From: Candidatus Marinacidobacterales bacterium
Lineage (GTDB): Bacteria; Acidobacteriota; Vicinamibacteria; Marinacidobacterales; DATDRI01
Length of the DNA stretch: 64,000 nt
Reading direction: 5' to 3'
NCBI GenBank assembly: GCA_965219415.1
Contig: CBDCNP010000002.1
Coordinates: forward strand, 5,536,001-5,600,000
Of this stretch, positions 41,271 to 64,000 are shown in pieces. A program made the position numbers and the translations under genes. The notes beneath the pieces were generated by a model. It did not search any database, was not told where the DNA came from, and saw nothing but the letters and a program-made list of their open reading frames with translations. The number at the start of each line of letters is the position of its first letter. The first letter of the stretch is position 1.

Positions 41271-42469
41271 GGTGCTTCCGCCATCAAGTGTTGCTACGCG
41301 GCTGCGGGCAGTGGTACAGGTGCGGAAGAGAGCGGGTTGCGCGCCCCAGTGAGCAGGAAAACCTCGATCCGCGACCACAAAGGAATCGTCGTCGCCAAGA
41401 AGATGTCTCGAAAGGTGAGCCGTCGCGTGGTGAGACCGGCCTGCATAGCCGGAGTTCGGATCTCACGTCCGAACTTCAGAGCTCCGTGCGGTCGGACGAA
41501 GTTGTAATAGCAACGGAGCAACTCCAGGTGCTCATCGAGCCTCTCCGTCGAGCGAGCGTGGGAAAGCGTTCGTCTCGAAAGGTATGCCGAGCTTTGCCGG
41601 ATGGTCAGATTCAACCGCTCGATGAATGACGTGTTCAATGTTGAGGAGTCCTCGGAGTTATTGAGCGCGTCATCAAATCGCCACGCGGCTCCGTGCAGCG
41701 CTCTGCGTTCGACCTTGATGATACGATCGTTCCTGCGCGTTTTGAGGACTTGGCCGTAGAGACACGCTGGCCCGAAGAAGCGACGGATGACCTTCTGGTA
41801 GAATTCGAATCCATCCGTAACGATCAAGGGAAGACCCTCGAAATTCATCCGCCTCGAAAGGTCGTGAAACAGAGCGTGAGTGTTCCGGTAGCTTCGCCTT
41901 CCCGTCACCGTCGATGGCCAGAGCCGAGACCAGACCTCGATCGTAACGAAGACCCAACTCGGCGTCTTCTTGTTGCCCGCGAACGTGCGAATCTCGTCGG
42001 CTTGAAGCTCTTCGGCAGCGAAGCCAGCGATCCTTGTGTGGTTGAATCGACGACACACTTGGGCTGCCTTCTCAAGCCAGCGGGCGACGGTGTTCCAGGC
42101 AATCCCTTCGATCCGGGAAATCGCGGAAATGCTGACACCCTCGACTCTGAGAGCGATGACCCCGTCGAAAGTAGCTCTTCGATGTTGGAGACGGTAGTAG
42201 GGCGTGCCTTTCGTCGAGGAGAACGTCTTTCCGCACTCGCCGCACCGGTATCGACGGCGTTTCCCAGACTTGGTTCGGTAGAATCCGTGGCGAACGATGT
42301 TTCCGGAACTGACTTTGCCCCGCAACGCACATGCGGGATTGAGACATCTGCTATTCTTCACTTCGGATTGCCCTTACGATGAGAGAACTGTGTCTTCGGA
42401 ATTCTGGCTCAAACTCTAGCACGCGAGCGGGTTACGCGGCGGCCACCAACACTTGATGGCGGAAGCACC
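41271..42469 (-). mobile_element. IS1-family element (single-ORF type), intact
   Basis: Perfect 23-bp IRs GGTGCTTCCGCCATCAAGTGTTG; no TSD. Confidence 0.9.
41294..42361 (-). CDS. IS1-family transposase (Zn ribbon + HTH + DDE)
   Basis: CLNPAC / YRCGECGKTF, QADE, VTDG, IERLNLTIRQ, YNFVRPH, TPAMQAG. Confidence 0.88.
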   Translation of the reverse strand: MKNSRCLNPACALRGKVSSGNIVRHGFYRTKSGKRRRYRCGECGKTFSSTKGTPYYRLQHRRATFDGVIALRVEGVSISAISRIEGIAWNTVARWLEKAAQVCRRFNHTRIAGFAAEELQADEIRTFAGNKKTPSWVFVTIEVWSRLWPSTVTGRRSYRNTHALFHDLSRRMNFEGLPLIVTDGFEFYQKVIRRFFGPACLYGQVLKTRRNDRIIKVERRALHGAAWRFDDALNNSEDSSTLNTSFIERLNLTIRQSSAYLSRRTLSHARSTERLDEHLELLRCYYNFVRPHGALKFGREIRTPAMQAGLTTRRLTFRDIFLATTIPLWSRIEVFLLTGARNPLSSAPVPLPAAA

Positions 42470-51094: not shown

Positions 51095-51338
51095 GGTGCT
51101 TCCGCCATCAAGTGTTGCTACGCCGTGTTTGAATGCTAATGTCAGCTGGCCTGCCTGTGTCGGCGAACGCCATCAATAAGGATGTCGGCGTGCACACGAA
51201 GGTGTCCCTGAACGTCAGGCACCGTGTGGTCAGCCCAGCCCGCATCGCCGAAAGAACTGCGTCTCCAGAAATCAGGCTCAAACTCTAGCACACGAGCGGG
51301 TTACGCGGCAGCCACCAACACTTGATTGCGGAAGCACC
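51095..51338 (-). mobile_element. 244-bp internal-deletion derivative of a diverged IS1-family element
   Basis: Both IRs; retains AMRAGLTTRCLTFRD tail; same deletion junction at ~54884-54987. Confidence 0.8.
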
Positions 51339-55918: not shown

Positions 55919-57470
55919 CGACTTACCTCGTGTGCCTGCTCATCCACGAGTCGGTCGTAGTGACCCACGTGAGGTAGAGGACGTTCGTAGCGCGCCAGCT
56001 CACCGAGTTGAGATTGGACTAGCTCTGACGATGCCGCGCGCGAAAGCGATGGAGACTCGACAAGGTGCCGAATCGCGTCTGCATCGATACAGCCGATCTC
56101 AAGCGCCACACGCAACGTATCTCTTAGCTGGTCGTAACCGTGTCGGCGTCCAAGCTGCACGAGTTCGATCATCTGACGCGTGCCTTCTTGCTTGCCCGTG
56201 ACGACGATTCAATCGCTTCCACACTTCATCGTAGCTCGCTGGCCACCGTCCTTGCTCGCGCCACTGCGCCAGAGGCGTCGACCCGGCTAAGGCTCCGGGT
56301 TTGCGCTCGAGGACGTCCAAGTAGTGTTCAAGATCTAGTACTTGTTTCATGCGGTCGTAGCAGCGTTCGTGACGCGCCACCCGGCGTCCCTCGTGCCAGA
56401 CCTCAACTTCAAGCGGCATCAGCTTGGCCACCGCACGTTGGCCGCGCTTGAGCGGCGTCGAGTACCAGTTCGTGCCCGCACGGACGCAACCCTTCTTATC
56501 CACCAGACCGATTCGTCTTTCTTCGAGCTCGAAACCCTGCGTCGCCAGTGGCAACAGGTGCTCGCGTTCGTACTCCATCCCAACACCAACCGTATGTGCT
56601 TTGCCGGAGATGTGACGTTTCTCCTCCTTGCGGCAACACGTCAGCAGGTAGTCGTTCAGCTCTTCCCAATCCGTGAACTCAGGGACCGGCGTCCAGTGAT
56701 TGCGGCGGAAGTAGCCGACCTCGCTTTCCACACCGCCTTTCTCGTTTCCACGGCTCGGATTGCAAAATTCCGACTCAAAACTCCAATGCGAGCGAAACAT
56801 GATGAACCGTTCTGTTTGCTCACGTTGGTGACCCCGAAGGATCTTCCTCACCGCCAGCGATAGGTTGTCGTAACGCAGCCGGTGGAACACCCCGCCGAAA
56901 AACTCGAACGCCTTCTCGTGCGCTTCGAAAAACGCTTGCTGCGTCGGACGCGGATACCCTCGATGCAACGCCCCTCCGCTTGCCATGCTCCGAACCACCA
57001 GCACGTAGACCTTCTGCTCTCGCCCTCCGATCCGTGAGTGAGCCTCGTACCAGTCCACTTGGCCTTCACCGCCCCACTCGTAACTCTGGGGCACGAACAC
57101 TTCGGCGTCCTTCAACCCCAGCTCTCGCCTCCGACGACCTACGTAGCGACGTATCGTTGGTTCCGCTATCTCATGTCCCGGATACTCCTCAATCACACGA
57201 CTCCAGATTCGATGAGCCGTGTGACGCTGTTTGCGCGGGGCTCGCTTGTCTCCTTCCAGAATCCCGTCGATGAACTCGACCACTGGACCCAGTTTCGGTG
57301 ACGCCCGTTCTGGACATTTACGCTCCCGTGGCACAGCCTTCTCCAGGGCCTGTCGCAACCATTCGTCGGTGAACACCGTACTTCGTTGCAACTCCTTGAA
57401 TCGTTCCAACTCCGCGTTCGTACTCTCGCCTCATCTGCTCGAACAGTCGCACTTTGGCACCCCTTTCCAA
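55915..57470 (-). pseudogene. istA: IS21 transposase IstA, frameshifted
   Basis: [25 protein letters not shown]; split near 56190 and near 57380-57410. Confidence 0.88.
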
Positions 57471-57743: not shown

Positions 57744-58319
57744 CTATGCAGTCGGACGCGGATGCCCGAACTCGTCTACTGGATGACCCGCCGCCAAGAG
57801 CGTCTTCTGAATACTCCGCAGAAAATCGGGTGCTTTCAGCATTTCGCTACTAAAGTGAGGATTGGAGGGGAGCACCAAGTCGCATACACGTCCATTTTTA
57901 TCCCGTTTGTAGAATATGACAGTGGCTTGTCTATCGGGAGCCTTTCCTTCGTGAGCTGCTCCTTTTGCTTGTGGCCCCCACCTCTCGGGGAACCGCCGCG
58001 CGAGCAGCCACATCGAAGCCTCCGCCTTCGGCGGGCGAAACTTCGACCCGATCGTAGCGTACTTGACCTTCCCGTTTTTCAACTGGCCGTTTAGGATTTC
58101 GCCGCCCTTGTATTTCACCGTCTGCTGGATAATCTTGCTCTCCTCGAGGGCGCTCCGCTCGATGTTCTCGAGGTGAACCCATTCGAAGTGTGCCAGGGCC
58201 TCCTGGACGGACTCGTAAAATTCATGAAATAGGCCGCTCTCTACCTTCCCACGTGCGATCCACCTGCAAAGTGTCTCTGGGGTTATGCCAGCGGACTGCG
58301 CTGCATCCTTATAGCTCAT
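57744..58319 (-). CDS. HTH hypothetical protein resembling phage small-terminase-like proteins; 5' end abuts a MITE
   Basis: AAQSAGITPETLCRW HTH; ASMWLLARRFPERWG motif. Confidence 0.45.
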   Translation of the reverse strand: MSYKDAAQSAGITPETLCRWIARGKVESGLFHEFYESVQEALAHFEWVHLENIERSALEESKIIQQTVKYKGGEILNGQLKNGKVKYATIGSKFRPPKAEASMWLLARRFPERWGPQAKGAAHEGKAPDRQATVIFYKRDKNGRVCDLVLPSNPHFSSEMLKAPDFLRSIQKTLLAAGHPVDEFGHPRPTA

Positions 58320-58445
58320 CCCCGTCCTGTGCCAAAACTCGGCCCTTTTGAAATAGACCATAAATCAGCAGCTTAGTGTCTGTGTTTGCGACCGGGCCAA
58401 GGCGGCCCAAGGGTCTTGAGTTCGTTTGTATTCTTGGACACGACG
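58320..58445. mobile_element. ~125-bp hybrid MITE (A end + B end)
   Basis: Near-identical to 54002-54127. Confidence 0.85.
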
Positions 58446-58483
58446 GCCACGTCAGGAACAATTCGGGCTTCATCTACCTTGCG

Positions 58484-58612
58484 CGTCGTGTCCAAAAACA
58501 CAAACGCGTTGCCCAGCCCTTGATGGTTGTGCTCTCCACGATAATGATAGATGAACTCGGCGACGGCCCGTCGCGCGGGTCTTAGAGTTCGTTTGTATTT
58601 TTGGACACGACG
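58484..58612. mobile_element. ~130-bp B-B mini-element carrying a scrap of integrase-core coding sequence
   Basis: Inverted B ends; interior resembles 5600-5650. Confidence 0.7.
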
Positions 58613-58615
58613 CGG

Positions 58616-59093
58616 TCAATGCACTTTGTATTTCGGCGGATCGGGCTCGAAGCTCTCGGGTCGGCTGTCCACCACCGGGCCCGAGTCGGCCTCGAATCCC
58701 ATCCCGGAGACGTGCACGTGCAATCGATTTTCTTCGACCGCTTTACGGAAGCGCGCCAGCAAGGTGTCTTTGATGAGGGTTGCGGAAGCCGGGCACGAGC
58801 AACGAGAAGCCGAATGCGTCGGTGAAGATCCCCGGTGTCATCAGCAGTGCGCCCGCGACGAGGATCATGACGCCGTCCGCAAGCGAGCCTGCGGGGACCT
58901 CGCCACGGGCCATCTGCTTCTGAGCGCGGGTCAAAACCGAGAGACCTTGCCGCCGTGCCAGATACGCACCCACGATGCCGGTGAAGACGATCAAGGCGAG
59001 CGTCAGCCACGTACCGAGATAGATTCCCGCTTGGATGAGAAGAGCGAGCTCCGCGGCGGGGACGATGACGAACAGCAAAAGAAGCTTTCCCAT
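58616..59093 (-). CDS. fxsA: FxsA family membrane protein (1-bp frameshift near 58780)
   Basis: LLFVIVPAAE, GAYLARRQG, GALLMTPGIFTD; TATAAT 6 bp before ATG. Confidence 0.85.
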
Positions 59094-59410
59094 ACCGTCA
59101 TTATAGGAACGTTTTCCGGCCGCCATTGTAAAAAAGAGCTACAGATGGATAACTCTTTGCAAAGTCTACGGTTTGACACCGGCGTCCGCAGCCAACGATG
59201 CGGATGGTGGAACCACGATGTTGGCGAGCTACTTGTGCCTTCTATTTATTTATCCGCGCGCACCAAACTTGATTAATCTCCGGTCTGCCAGCACCATGCT
59301 GCCTTGGTGGGTGCTTCCGCCATCAAGTGATGGAATGGACTCCTCCACTGACATAGACGGCATCGATGTGCCAAAGTCAGTCGAATACGCATCGAAAAGG
59401 AGGAGTCCGA

Positions 59411-60442
59411 ATGAAAGATACGACAATCGCTGTGGATCTTGCAAAGAACGTCTTCGAGATTGCCATCTCGGGAGAAGCGGGGAAGGTGTCCAAGCAACTC
59501 CGTGTGAGTCGACCCAAATTGGTGTCGTTCTTTGCCAAACAGAGCGCTGCCACCGTGCTTCTCGAAGCCTGCGGCTCGGCTCACTTCTGGGCAAGGACGT
59601 TCCGAAGGTTGGGACACGACGTCGTCCTGCTCCCACCTCACCTCGTGAGGCCGTATCGACGCGGGAGCAAGAACGACCGCGCCGACACGAAGGCGTTGCT
59701 CGAGGCCTACAGGAACGAGGAGCTTCTTCCCGTACCCATCAAGTCCGTGCACCAGCACACCCTCGCTGCGCTCCATCGCCTGCGCTCAGGATGGCTCTCC
59801 ACACGGACCGCACGCATCAATGCCGTACGCGGGCTCCTGCGCGAACTCGGATTCATCATCCCAAAGGGCGCTCACTTCGTCGTGCCCGCCCTCTTCGAAC
59901 TCGTCGAAGACGCTGATTCTGATTTGCCCGACGTGCTCCGTTCGCATCTCCGTGATGCCTGCTCCGAGATTCGAGAACTCAAGGACAAGTGCGCTAGCAT
60001 CGAGCACGAGCTCAAGGCGCTCACCAAGCAGCTTCCTGAAGTCCAACGACTTCTCGCCATTCCCGGCATCGGACTTCTGGCCGCGACCGCCATCGTGGGC
60101 TTCGTCGGCGATCTTCGCCGCTTCCCATCGGGGCGCCGCTTCTCGAGCTACCTCGGCCTAGTTCCCAAGGAAAACTCCAGTGGCGACATTCGCCGCCTCG
60201 GACGCATCACCAAGCGTGGCGACTCCTACCTCCGTATGCTCCTCACCCAGGGCGGGCGCGCCGTGCTCCGCGCGGCGAACGTCAGCAAGAGCCCGCCCGA
60301 CAAGCTCCGCGCCTGGGCTCGGAAGGTCCACCGCTCGCGGGGACACAACAAGGCCGTGATTGCTGTCGCCAACAAACTCGCCCGGATCGTCTGGGCCGTC
60401 TCCACCCGCGAGAGTGAATTCCAGTCGCCGGTGGCCGCTTAG
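59411..60442 (+). CDS. IS110/IS1111 DEDD bridge recombinase
   Basis: AVDLAKNVF, LEAC, KNDRADT, IPGIG, GLVPKENSSG, AVANKLARI; AGGAGG RBS. Confidence 0.95.
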   Translation: MKDTTIAVDLAKNVFEIAISGEAGKVSKQLRVSRPKLVSFFAKQSAATVLLEACGSAHFWARTFRRLGHDVVLLPPHLVRPYRRGSKNDRADTKALLEAYRNEELLPVPIKSVHQHTLAALHRLRSGWLSTRTARINAVRGLLRELGFIIPKGAHFVVPALFELVEDADSDLPDVLRSHLRDACSEIRELKDKCASIEHELKALTKQLPEVQRLLAIPGIGLLAATAIVGFVGDLRRFPSGRRFSSYLGLVPKENSSGDIRRLGRITKRGDSYLRMLLTQGGRAVLRAANVSKSPPDKLRAWARKVHRSRGHNKAVIAVANKLARIVWAVSTRESEFQSPVAA

Positions 60443-60504
60443 ATTTAGAGGCTCCACTTTCGTGTTTTCCTTTTTCCCTTCCAAAAGAGGCTGCGACGAT
60501 ACCC

Positions 60505-60670
60505 ATCCAACTGATGGCGTACCGGTCGGACCGGCGCGGGGTCAAGCCAATAGCAACACTGGCCCTAAGAGGTCGTTCAAAGTGATTGGCTCCTCGCGCG
60601 CGGATTTTCCATCATGGCCCGGAGCACCCAAGACGCTCCTCACTGAGGCCGAAGATACGTTTGCAGTCTG
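60505..60670 (+). ncRNA. Predicted bridge RNA (seekRNA) of the IS1111 element
   Basis: Two stem-internal-loop-stem units; loop 1 has TAGCAACA(CT) and AAGTG matching the target; loop 2 has TTCCATCAT and AGATAC matching the circle junction; boundaries approximate. Confidence 0.82.
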
Positions 60671-60774
60671 ACCCACTCGTCACGACGCGATGGATGCGCA
60701 GCTTCGATGGAAGATTTATTAAGAAAGGGGCGTGACTAGAAAGAAAGGGGCTTGACTAGAGGAGTCCAGATATG

Positions 60775-60995
60775 TTGCTACGCGGCTGCGGGCAGTGGTT
60801 CAGGTGCGGAAGAGAGCGAGTTACGCGCCCCAGTGAGCACGCAAAGCACGCAAACCTCGATCTGCGACCACAAAGGCATCGTCGTCGCCAAGAAGATGTC
60901 TCGAAAGGTGAGCCGTCGCGTCGTCAGACCAGCCTGCATAGCCGGAGTTCGGATCTCACGTCCGAACTTCAGAGCTCCGTGCGGTCGGACGAAGT
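60775..60995 (-). pseudogene. 3' remnant of IS1-family transposase (host of first IS1111)
   Basis: Homologous to ~41291-41503; truncated by the MITE at 60996. Confidence 0.85.
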
Positions 60996-61161
60996 GGTGC
61001 TTGCGCTGTTTACTGTTGGTGATGTGTACGCATCCCTTTGCAAAAGAGGCGCTTACGCTCCATTTAGCGCGCAGCGGAGGTCACGAGCGCTATTTTGGCT
61101 GTAATCTAATGCACCGTAAAGTCTTAGCGTCATCTCACCAACACTTAATGGCGGAAGCATC
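60996..61161. mobile_element. 166-bp IS1-type MITE
   Basis: Near-identical to 5411-5576. Confidence 0.9.
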
Positions 61162-61205
61162 GATTTATGGGCTATTTCAAAAGGGCTGAGTTTTGGCACA
61201 GGACG

Positions 61206-62002
61206 CCGTCGCCCGCTGGCTCGAGAAGGCAGCCCAAGTGTGTCGTCGATTCAATCACAGAAGGATCGCTGGCTTCGCTGCCGAAGAGCTTCAAGCCGAC
61301 GAGATTCGCACGTTCGCGGGCAACAAGAAGACACCGAGTTGGGTCTTCGTTACGATCGAGGTCTGGTCTCGGCTCTGGCCATCGACGGTGACGGGAAGGC
61401 GAAGCTACCGGAACACTCACGCTCTGTTTCGCGACCTTTCGAGACGGATGAATTTCGAGCGTCTTCCCTTGATCGTCACGGATGGATTCGAATTCTACCA
61501 GAAGGTCATCCGTCGCTTCTTCGGGCCAGCGTGCCTCTACGGCCAGGTCCTCAAAACGCGCAGGAACGATCGCATCATCAAGGTCGAACGGAGAGCGCTG
61601 CACGGAGCCGCGTGGCGATTCGAAGACGCGCTCAATAACTCCGAGGACTCCTCGACATTGAACACGTCGTTCATCGAGCGGTTGAATCTGACCATCCGGC
61701 AAAGCTCGGCATACCTTTCGAGACGAACACTTTCCCACGCTCGCTCGACGGAGAGGCTCGATGAGCACCTGGAGTTGTTCCGTTGCTATTACAACTTCGT
61801 CCGACCGCACGGAGCTCTGAAGTTCGGACGTGAGATCCGAACTCCGGCTATGCAAGCCGGTCTGACCACGCGACGGCTCACCTTGCGAGACATCTTCTTG
61901 GCGACGACGATTCCTTTGTGGTCGCGGATCGAGGTTTTCCTGCTCACTGGGGCGCGCAACCCGGTCTCTTCCGCACCTGTACCACTGCCCGCAGCCGCGT
62001 AG
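61206..62002 (+). pseudogene. 5'-truncated IS1-family transposase (host of second IS1111)
   Basis: VARWLEKAA...PLPAAA; begins at an A end. Confidence 0.88.
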
Positions 62003-62109
62003 CAACATATCTGGACTCCTCTAGTCAAGCCCCTTTCTTTCTAGTCACGCCCCTTTCTTAATAAATCTTCCATCGAAGCTGCGCATCCATCGCGTCGTGA
62101 CGAGTGGGT

Positions 62110-62275
62110 CAGACTGCAAACGTATCTTCGGCCTCAGTGAGGAGCGTCTTGGGTGCTCCGGGCCATGATGGAAAATCCGCGCGCGAGGAGCCAATCACTT
62201 TGAACGACCTCTTAGGGCCAGTGTTGCTATTGGCTTGACCCCGCGCCGGTCCGACCGGTACGCCATCAGTTGGAT
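62110..62275 (-). ncRNA. Predicted bridge RNA of the second IS1111 copy
   Basis: Reverse complement of 60505-60670. Confidence 0.82.
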
Positions 62276-62337
62276 GGGTATCGTCGCAGCCTCTTTTGGA
62301 AGGGAAAAAGGAAAACACGAAAGTGGAGCCTCTAAAT

Positions 62338-63369
62338 CTAAGCGGCCACCGGCGACTGGAATTCACTCTCGCGGGTGGAGACGGCCCAGACGATCCGGGC
62401 GAGTTTGTTGGCGACAGCAATCACGGCCTTGTTGTGTCCCCGCGAGCGGTGGACCTTCCGAGCCCAGGCGCGGAGCTTGTCGGGCGGGCTCTTGCTGACG
62501 TTCGCCGCGCGGAGCACGGCGCGCCCGCCCTGGGTGAGGAGCATACGGAGGTAGGAGTCGCCACGCTTGGTGATGCGTCCGAGGCGGCGAATGTCGCCAC
62601 TGGAGTTTTCCTTGGGAACTAGGCCGAGGTAGCTCGAGAAGCGGCGCCCCGATGGGAAGCGGCGAAGATCGCCGACGAAGCCCACGATGGCGGTCGCGGC
62701 CAGAAGTCCGATGCCGGGAATGGCGAGAAGTCGTTGGACTTCAGGAAGCTGCTTGGTGAGCGCCTTGAGCTCGTGCTCGATGCTAGCGCACTTGTCCTTG
62801 AGTTCTCGAATCTCGGAGCAGGCATCACGGAGATGCGAACGGAGCACGTCGGGCAAATCAGAATCAGCGTCTTCGACGAGTTCGAAGAGGGCGGGCACGA
62901 CGAAGTGAGCGCCCTTTGGGATGATGAATCCGAGTTCGCGCAGGAGCCCGCGTACGGCATTGATGCGTGCGGTCCGTGTGGAGAGCCATCCTGAGCGCAG
63001 GCGATGGAGCGCAGCGAGGGTGTGCTGGTGCACGGACTTGATGGGTACGGGAAGAAGCTCCTCGTTCCTGTAGGCCTCGAGCAACGCCTTCGTGTCGGCG
63101 CGGTCGTTCTTGCTCCCGCGTCGATACGGCCTCACGAGGTGAGGTGGGAGCAGGACGACGTCGTGTCCCAACCTTCGGAACGTCCTTGCCCAGAAGTGAG
63201 CCGAGCCGCAGGCTTCGAGAAGCACGGTGGCAGCGCTCTGTTTGGCAAAGAACGACACCAATTTGGGTCGACTCACACGGAGTTGCTTGGACACCTTCCC
63301 CGCTTCTCCCGAGATGGCAATCTCGAAGACGTTCTTTGCAAGATCCACAGCGATTGTCGTATCTTTCAT
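62338..63369 (-). CDS. IS110/IS1111 DEDD bridge recombinase
   Basis: Same protein as 59411-60442. Confidence 0.95.
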   Translation of the reverse strand: MKDTTIAVDLAKNVFEIAISGEAGKVSKQLRVSRPKLVSFFAKQSAATVLLEACGSAHFWARTFRRLGHDVVLLPPHLVRPYRRGSKNDRADTKALLEAYRNEELLPVPIKSVHQHTLAALHRLRSGWLSTRTARINAVRGLLRELGFIIPKGAHFVVPALFELVEDADSDLPDVLRSHLRDACSEIRELKDKCASIEHELKALTKQLPEVQRLLAIPGIGLLAATAIVGFVGDLRRFPSGRRFSSYLGLVPKENSSGDIRRLGRITKRGDSYLRMLLTQGGRAVLRAANVSKSPPDKLRAWARKVHRSRGHNKAVIAVANKLARIVWAVSTRESEFQSPVAA

Positions 63370-63589
63370 TTGGACTCCTCCTTTTCGATGCGTATTCGAC
63401 TGACTTTGGCACATCGATGCCGTCTATGTCAGTGGAGGAGTCCATTCCATCACTTGATGGCGGAAGCACCGGTCTATTTCTAAAGGGCCGAGTTTTGGCA
63501 CAGGACGGGGGATCTCGGAGGATCCAGTCTCGGAAATAGCACCGCCGCGCCCAGCTCTCGACATGCCCGGGAGGTGCTACAATGTGGGC

Positions 63590-63874
63590 ATGTTGAAGGT
63601 TCGCGAAGTTCGAGCGCTGCCCAAATACCAGATTTGGGTGCGTTACGAGGATGGCACCGAAGGCGAGGTGGACCTCATTCCCTTCGTCGGCAAGGGCATA
63701 TTCTCGTCGTGGGGTGATCCTGCATTCTTCGAGACCGTCCACGTGAGCCCCCACGGAAGCATCGCGTGGAACAAAGACATCGAGCTATGCCCGGACAGCA
63801 TCTACCTCGAGCTAACCGGAAAGAAGCCGGAGGAGGTTTTCCCTCGAATATCGGTCGCCGATGTAGATGCCTGA
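63590..63874 (+). CDS. DUF2442 domain protein
   Basis: VRYEDGTEGEVDL...SIAWNKDIELCPDSIY; extended -10 TGCTACAAT 6 bp before ATG. Confidence 0.85.
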   Translation: MLKVREVRALPKYQIWVRYEDGTEGEVDLIPFVGKGIFSSWGDPAFFETVHVSPHGSIAWNKDIELCPDSIYLELTGKKPEEVFPRISVADVDA

Positions 63875-64000
63875 GCTAAGCCGGTTTTATGGCATCGTCG
63901 TGCGGATGTTCTTCAACGATCATGCCCCTCCTCATTTCCATGCGTATTACGGGTCCGACGAGGCTCTCTTTGCCATCGAGACGCTATCGCTGACGGCAGG
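63867..64000 (+). CDS. DUF4160 domain protein (runs off window)
   Basis: MPELSRFYGIVVRMFFNDHAPPHFHAYY. Confidence 0.88.
   Translation, partial: MPELSRFYGIVVRMFFNDHAPPHFHAYYGSDEALFAIETLSLTA

Follow-up and report, generated by a model that had tools for sequence, protein, structure and literature searches.

An IS1111-group element with a predicted two-loop guide RNA, found at one position of IS1-like terminal repeats in a Candidatus Marinacidobacterales genome

The stretch analysed here (the window) comprises 64,000 nucleotides (nt) of a Candidatus Marinacidobacterales bacterium (GenBank assembly GCA_965219415.1, contig CBDCNP010000002.1, positions 5,536,001 to 5,600,000 of the forward strand); the source genome, G000, measures 8.05 Mb in 3 contigs. 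The last 5 kb of the window hold two copies of an IS110-family insertion sequence that belongs to the IS1111 group; the copies are inverted to each other, 99.93% identical in a BLAST comparison, and inserted in the terminal repeats of IS1-like elements that are themselves already truncated (Table 1). Both copies consist of 1443 bp and a 2-bp TG core. The left flank of copy 1 ends with ...CATCAAGTG and its right flank begins with TGTTGCTACG, TG thus standing at either side; the 20-mer GGTGCTTCCGCCATCAAGTG precedes each copy and TGTTGCTACG comes after it. Unoccupied ends at 41271, 47964 and 51095 read ...CATCAAGTGTTGCTACG, which, compared with these flanks, places the element between positions 20 and 21 of the terminal repeat with TG at both junctions.

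The element encodes a DEDD transposase. Protein searches, run on 59408-60442 and thus with one extra N-terminal codon, matched PF01548 (N-terminal RuvC-like DEDD domain; E 6.9e-12, 45.8 bits, cut-off 29), PF02371 (C-terminal domain; E 3.3e-24, 85.5 bits, cut-off 21.3) and the NCBIfam model NF033542, 'IS110 family RNA-guided transposase' (302.9 bits, cut-off 140). The C-terminal domain also aligns to the ISCro4 (E 2.5e-8) and IS621 (E 9.1e-8) transposases in the PDB, the similarity to IS621 being confined to this domain (E about 1e-7). According to Siddiquee et al. 2024 (PMC11187229), the IS1111 group is characterised by a long downstream non-coding region, subterminal inverted repeats, a transposase of 330-350 amino acids (aa) and the motif GL-P----S(T)G. 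All of these are present here, the downstream non-coding region being the longer one and the subterminal repeats being perfect over 10 bp with short and unequal terminal extensions of 6 nt and 4 nt plus core. Such repeats are usually 11-13 bp long, and 7-17 bp is also given in the literature. As in the IS110 family, insertion occurs at a single specific site, in one orientation, and only TG is duplicated. On each sequence-level test of membership, the element is therefore one of the IS1111 group.

Two observations concern the ends of the element. At 60700-60758, within the right end, a 20-bp unit (AAGAAAGGGGCKTGACTAG) occurs twice in tandem; two G000 copies as well as all close relatives have a single unit. 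The motif TTGAC stands just inside the right subterminal repeat in about eight relatives, which fits a -35 box that the joining of the ends in the circle would complete. A scan of 59200-60900 detected no sigma-70-like promoter, and the two terminator-like sites in this interval are both on the opposite strand.

The non-coding region 3' of the transposase gene contains the predicted guide RNA. Within an outer helix, the minimum-energy fold forms a target module and a donor module, each consisting of a stem, an internal loop and a hairpin; the target-module stem pairs 60545-60551 with 60585-60591, and the donor-module stem pairs 60600-60605 with 60659-60664. The two sides of the target loop match the insertion site over 10 and 5 nt, and those of the donor loop match the circle junction, as inferred from the two ends of the element, over 9 and 6/7 nt. 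When the non-coding region was shuffled, without demanding that matches span the junctions or sit in internal loops, a target match of at least 10 nt arose in 28 of 2000 cases and a junction match of at least 9 nt in 122 of 2000. The complement of the top strand comes first and the two matches overlap in the target, which is the order of IS1111 seekRNAs. A preliminary description of this locus had assigned the element to the IS1111 group, placed both copies 20 bp inside the repeat at AAG-TG-TTGCTA with TG on both sides, and proposed a two-loop guide architecture in the 3' non-coding end, with loops matching target and circle junction. The profile matches, protein length, motif and repeats agree with the assignment, the empty ends bear out the position, the fold contains the two modules with their matches, and the stem, loop-motif and copy coordinates proved correct to the base.

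Table 1. Coordinates of the element, its predicted guide RNA, its hosts and reference elements in the window (MITE, miniature inverted-repeat transposable element)
Feature	Coordinates	Strand	Basis
IS1111-group element copy 1, 1443 bp and one TG core (60773-60774)	59330..60774	+	BLAST, sequence
DEDD transposase gene, 343 aa, ATG behind GGAGG ribosome-binding site; motif GLVPKENSSG	59411..60442	+	PF01548, PF02371, NF033542
Left subterminal inverted repeat TGGACTCCTC, 6 nt from left end	59336..59345	+	Reverse complement of 60759-60768
Right subterminal inverted repeat GAGGAGTCCA, 4 nt and core from right end	60759..60768	+	Sequence
Non-coding region 3' of transposase gene, 330 nt (the 5' one, 81 nt)	60443..60772	+	Folds with z -2.78 against shuffles
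Predicted bridge/seekRNA scaffold; outer helix 60524-60531 / 60666-60673 around target and donor modules	60524..60673	+	Minimum-energy fold
Predicted 5' target guide TAGCAACACT, complementary to top-strand AG-TG-TTGCTA	60551..60560	+	Sequence, shuffles
Predicted 3' target guide AAGTG, complementary to bottom strand of left target and core	60580..60584	+	Sequence
Predicted 5' donor guide TTCCATCAT, complementary to A-TG-ATGGAA (core and left element end) of circle junction	60607..60615	+	Sequence, shuffles
Predicted 3' donor guide AGATACG, against right end and core AGATA-TG: 6/7 positions	60653..60659	+	Sequence
Outer 20 bp of 23-bp IS1-like terminal repeat, stub left of copy 1; last two bases TG = crossover core	59310..59329	+	
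Host of copy 1: truncated 3' end of IS1-like element, carrying transposase stop codon	60775..60995	-	Comparison with full element
IS1111-group element copy 2 (element proper 62008-63450) and one core copy 62006-62007	62006..63450	-	BLAST
Outer 20-bp repeat stub of the host of copy 2	63451..63470	-	Sequence, repeat-end survey
Host of copy 2: 5'-truncated IS1-like transposase frame; TAG stop within recognised TTGCTA	61193..62002	+	Open reading frame, domains
Reference intact IS1-like element, 1199 bp, single 355-aa frame; target at 41271 unoccupied	41271..42469	-	Repeat-end survey, open reading frame
Reference 244-bp MITE; end 51095 carries target (unoccupied here), end 51338 without target	51095..51338	+	Repeat-end survey
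166-bp MITE, end reads TTGGTGAG (class D), class never occupied	60996..61161	-	Occupancy 0/175

The transposase of the host element is encoded in a single frame without a frameshift, and its best family match is NF033558 (IS1 family; E 9e-24, 84.5 bits); PF03400 scores 21.4 against a cut-off of 24.1. Because the IS1 score lies below the curated cut-off of 100, the host is called IS1-like here. Repeat ends were counted as ends with at most three mismatches from the 20-mer GGTGCTTCCGCCATCAAGTG, which gave 481 genome-wide. In the 448 unoccupied ends, conservation of the repeat runs to position 23 (TTG, 96-97%) and the sequence is class-specific beyond it: the stop-codon end of the IS1-like element reads TTGCTACGCGG, the upstream end reads TTGGYGGC, the 166-bp MITE forms a class of its own (Table 1), and minor classes also occur. 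The 244-bp MITE has one end of the stop-codon (TTGCTA) type and one of the upstream type. About 480 IS1-like repeat ends in 8.05 Mb, at least 175 of them from the 166-bp MITE, represent an unusually heavy load of IS1 and MITEs, and these ends are concentrated on contig C3 at about 1.8-5.7 Mb.

BLAST of the element against G000 gave 36 matches, and all 32 of those that include the first base of the element have the same 20-bp left flank. As the preliminary description had expected of a genome-wide check, the copies share their site: 33 of the 481 repeat ends are occupied, always at the same position and in the same orientation. Three of these occupied ends lack the right end of the element, and 28 of the 30 copies with a readable right flank stand at AAGTG/TTGCTA (the slash marks the insertion point). 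Perfect sites are occupied in 28 of 107 cases (26%) and other repeat ends in 2 of 371 (0.5%), with a Fisher p of 8.7e-18 that overstates independence because the copies are related by descent. The sequence AAGTGTTGCTA was not found outside the repeat context in G000 (0/80). The site is 11 nt long and covers positions 16-26 of the IS1-like end, namely 8 nt of the shared 23-bp repeat and the three class-specific bases CTA.

Since the site includes CTA at positions 24-26, only ends reading CTA are targeted, these being the IS1-like end with the stop codon and, in certain MITEs, one of the two ends. Occupancy follows this division: 14 of 72 stop-codon IS1-like ends, 10 of 28 TTGCTA ends of the 244-bp MITE and 2 of 12 ends of a third TTGCTA class carry the element, as compared with none of the 175 ends of the 166-bp MITE and 1 of 84 upstream IS1-like ends. 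The guide had been said to cover the transposase stop codon and hence to select the downstream IS1 end, to the exclusion of the upstream end and of MITE ends. The stop codon of the IS1-like transposase does fall within the recognised TTGCTA and the upstream end is indeed avoided, whereas the exclusion of MITE ends has to be abandoned, as the TTGCTA end of the 244-bp MITE is occupied more often than the IS1 end. Selection by the stop codon as such falls with it; the discriminating feature is CTA at repeat positions 24-26, coding or not.

Besides complete copies, tandem partial copies that hold the 3' part only (from element positions ~624-1159 to the end) were found directly behind full elements at G000 C3:3315127-3316853 and, among related loci, in L001 (3848-4931), in L009, L026 and L010 (from ~3846) and in L013-L016. 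In L001 four guide-RNA modules stand in a row, and several tandem junctions lie behind an internal ..GTG, as if the left target half alone had recombined.

These partial copies, together with many fragments, would fit a decaying element that is no longer mobile and whose site pattern is historical. Truncation of the hosts could be read in the same way, as the 14 occupied IS1-type hosts comprise 11 truncated ones and 3 of full length with intact frames, in comparison with 27 truncated and 31 full-length elements among 58 unoccupied ones (Fisher p 0.039); this weak link between occupancy and host truncation is compatible with several histories. On the other hand, 17 of the 27 copies that are full length in one piece are 100% identical to copy 1, with intact frames, and 79 perfect sites are still unoccupied, so that the targets are not saturated. 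A relic is therefore improbable.

A still less probable account is that the shared site reflects co-amplification, in which one composite of the IS1-like and IS1111 elements, or segmental duplications, spread in place of independent insertions. The outer 20 of 23 repeat positions stay terminal in the composite and an IS1-like transposase could in principle move it; among the full copies, one pair has a common outer flank and three pairs have a common inner flank. Against this, the 27 full copies, for all the identity of 17 of them, have 24 distinct 60-nt inner host sequences, which indicates that the element inserted on many separate occasions after the host copies had diverged, and which so far suggests that occupied and unoccupied hosts are interspersed. 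The insertions are spread over at least three classes of host element. In addition, two relatives, L019 and L020 (a 92% variant, variant B), lie outside IS1 repeats altogether, at sites that share only TCAAGTG/TGTTGCT (12-13 nt).

Close relatives, with 92-98% protein identity, were found in five metagenome-assembled genomes (MAGs) labelled Candidatus Marinacidobacterales, most copies being in the same repeat. In L017 (90.6% identical), both target-loop segments are altered and the insertion site, ..CCAGTG/TGATTGTTA, matches its own loops and is outside any IS1 repeat; the donor loops and the element ends are unchanged. As far as loops and flanks tell, this is reprogramming in nature within 10% sequence divergence. 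A third 'guide variant', which came from a pattern search and occurred in three genomes, was a chance match inside an ordinary gene. L037 (46% identical, Steroidobacteraceae), with a similar-looking non-coding region whose ends and core could not be defined by eye, was left out of all counts. The element in G000 (family f1) is 98.4% nucleotide-identical to that in G142, which carries L001-L012 and belongs to another family (f3) of the same order; the IS1-like repeat is common to both, and this suggests recent horizontal spread of the IS1111 element and the IS1-like element among these marine acidobacteria.

More distant relatives provide evidence on the fold and on the loops. A covariance model of the RNA (R1), built from seven variants, had matches in 25 of the 151 same-class genomes that were sampled. 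In an alignment of 23 distinct relatives (A2), 93.9% of the cells are paired, as compared with 31-43% when the partners are slid, and 21 of 42 pairs change on both sides versus 10.8 +/- 1.7 in shuffles (0 of 500 as high), a covariation that depends on A2, an alignment made to fit the structure of the model itself. Loops were also compared with flanks in 12 of 22 sources, those in which both ends could be located; L104 (5'-truncated RNA) and L107, L110-L113, L116, L121 and L122 (end or flank missing or unclear) were left out. Summed over the target loops, the longest exact loop-to-flank matches have a mean of 11.67 in cognate loci and of 7.03 in the 132 non-cognate pairs, and none of 20000 permutations reaches the cognate mean. 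As in a seekRNA, the fold is conserved and covarying and the guide loops vary with the target.

That the transposase protein alone recognises the IS1-like repeat, the loop matches being coincidental or regulatory, could draw on the RNA of this element being known from its sequence and on the report that the downstream small RNA of ISPpu9, Ssr9, is not required for transposition (PMC12288879), and yet is very hard to maintain, because loop changes follow target changes in L017 and across the 12 loci, the scaffold is kept by compensatory changes while target loops vary, and published experiments found four IS1111 members to require their non-coding region (PMC11187229).

The best explanation is an active element of roughly 30 copies belonging to the IS1111 group, the transposase of which is guided by RNA to IS1-like and MITE ends; we put its probability at about 0.9. 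It stands on the site specificity, the matches of the loops to target and donor, the covarying fold, and loops that track flanks in relatives. The DEDD transposase would be guided by an RNA from the 330-nt region 3' of its gene. In the target module, top-strand AG-TG-TTGCTA would be paired by the 5' side of the loop and the bottom strand of AAG-TG by its 3' side; the donor-module loop would pair likewise with AGATA-TG-ATGGAA, where the two ends meet in the excised circle. Recombination at the common TG core would then insert the circle in one orientation, with the core alone duplicated. By analogy with published experiments on IS1111 and IS110 elements, we infer that the RNA is made, is bound by the transposase and directs recombination.

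Apart from the shared descent of the copies and the dependence of the covariation on A2, several observations weigh against this explanation. One copy (C3:5105436), the single clear off-target copy and located in an upstream-type repeat end, stands at the right target TTGGCG, which departs from the guide at three bases. In the 3' donor guide, the first core position forms a C.A mismatch; this C is U in the 92% variant. In the close clade the stems are compatible with pairing, and 0 pairs are changed on both sides. The two bases beside the right end of distant relatives do not repeat the left-junction core, so the geometry with TG on both sides is established for this clade alone and may not hold more widely. 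A search of 58000-64000 against Rfam (E <= 1) gave no bridge RNA family, just two chance miRNA-like matches inside the transposase gene. Four metatranscriptome or so-labelled runs (X1-X4) yielded 1-14 short contigs each, at a depth of ~2-26, none spanning the RNA region; they may be DNA. Three of the ten runs listed are on record as RNA, and since the libraries may contain DNA they are uninformative on expression either way. One X2 contig links 60541 to 60645 via 99 other letters and may come from a relative with different loops.

Elsewhere in the window, a frame of 436 aa (56099-57409, minus strand) has an integrase core domain and a Mu-transposase C-terminal domain and represents a further transposase adjoining the studied region. 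A repeat of ~36 bp (GTCCTGTGCCAAAACTC.GCCCTTTTGAAATAG.CC and its complement) adjoins many IS1-like ends, being found in the window at 61162-61204, at 63471-63507 and at the start of the frame 57744-58361, and at many other G000 sites; it also cuts off the RNA region in the relative L104. It probably represents either the terminus of another mobile element or a site favoured by IS1 insertion.

Elements that insert in the terminal repeats of other transposons have been described before. IS4321 and IS5075, which Partridge and Hall reportedly described in 2003 in the terminal repeats of the Tn21 family, are likewise IS1111-family elements with a fixed target inside the terminal inverted repeat of another transposon. 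They differ in the host transposon family and in the site, and in the present case hundreds of targets lie in one chromosome, MITE ends included. IS1383 is said to have been found by Muller, Lauf and Herrmann in 2001 in the inverted repeats of IS1384 in Pseudomonas putida H. As reported, IS1383 belongs to the IS110 family and inserts specifically into another insertion sequence's inverted repeats, and so shows the same ecological relationship, with a different host insertion sequence and organism. The 2024 papers on RNA-guided targeting cite both the Tn21-repeat and the IS1383 cases. When the literature was searched for IS110-family elements lying inside repeats of other insertion sequences, nothing emerged in addition to these cases, and a search for Marinacidobacterales found no papers.

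The IS621 bridge RNA system is said to have been described by Hiraizumi et al. in 2024. RNA-guided targeting by IS110 and IS1111 elements was established in that year (PMC11208160, PMC11187229). The IS621 bridge RNA (Durrant et al. 2024, PMC11208160) is similar in that a two-loop RNA reads target and donor around a 2-nt core and works with a DEDD enzyme that has the same C-terminal domain, whereas here the RNA is in the right end and not the left, the order of the strand matches is reversed, and the core is TG and not CT. Closer likeness is seen with the seekRNA members ISEc11, ISKpn4, ISPst6 and ISPa11 (Siddiquee et al. 2024, PMC11187229), which have the downstream non-coding region, the subterminal repeats, a transposase of 330-350 aa and the GL-P----S(T)G motif, as well as a top-strand match 5' of the bottom-strand match, overlap of the two in the target, and one orientation at one short site. 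In comparison with these members (PMC11187229), the present element has a new target (positions 16-26 of the IS1-like end) and an Acidobacteriota MAG as host, is documented by sequence only, and has a 10-bp repeat with extensions of 6 and 4 nt in place of the usual 11-13 bp with 7 and 3 nt. Extra downstream RNA modules without a transposase gene, which correspond to the tandem 3' partial copies, are also described for ISPpu9/ssr9 (Pares-Guillen et al. 2025, PMC12288879); here the extra modules are in tandem directly behind full copies.

Neither the mechanism nor the preference for terminal repeats of transposons is therefore new to the literature, and the element is a clear natural example of both; an IS1-type target may even be among the published target lists of hundreds of IS110/IS1111 elements. 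The element stands apart by its target, by the lineage of its host and by the size of its natural set of targets. Understanding of the mechanism is unchanged by this element, the value of which lies in data on specificity and reprogramming and, possibly, in a test case for the interaction of transposon families. The 481 near-identical candidate sites in one genome, which differ mainly at three right-target positions, form a large natural specificity set for bridge/seekRNAs. The conserved RNA scaffold is defined for an acidobacterial class and has no Rfam model, and the IS1-like repeat joins the transposon ends that serve as safe harbours for IS1111 elements.

For the host element, the consequences may be of two kinds. 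It is conceivable, if on balance doubtful, that the element acts, as the preliminary description had suggested, as an RNA-guided parasite of another transposon family, which disables stop-codon IS1-like ends and one MITE end by splitting the repeat after position 20; if so, it would be a brake on the IS1 expansion that left ~480 repeat ends in an 8-Mb genome. Conversely, since the outer 20 of 23 conserved repeat positions remain at the terminus after insertion, the 20-bp stub could keep the composite mobile, and the IS1111 element could ride on the IS1-like element and on MITEs. Either outcome, if true, would be a measurable interaction of two transposon families through a programmable RNA.

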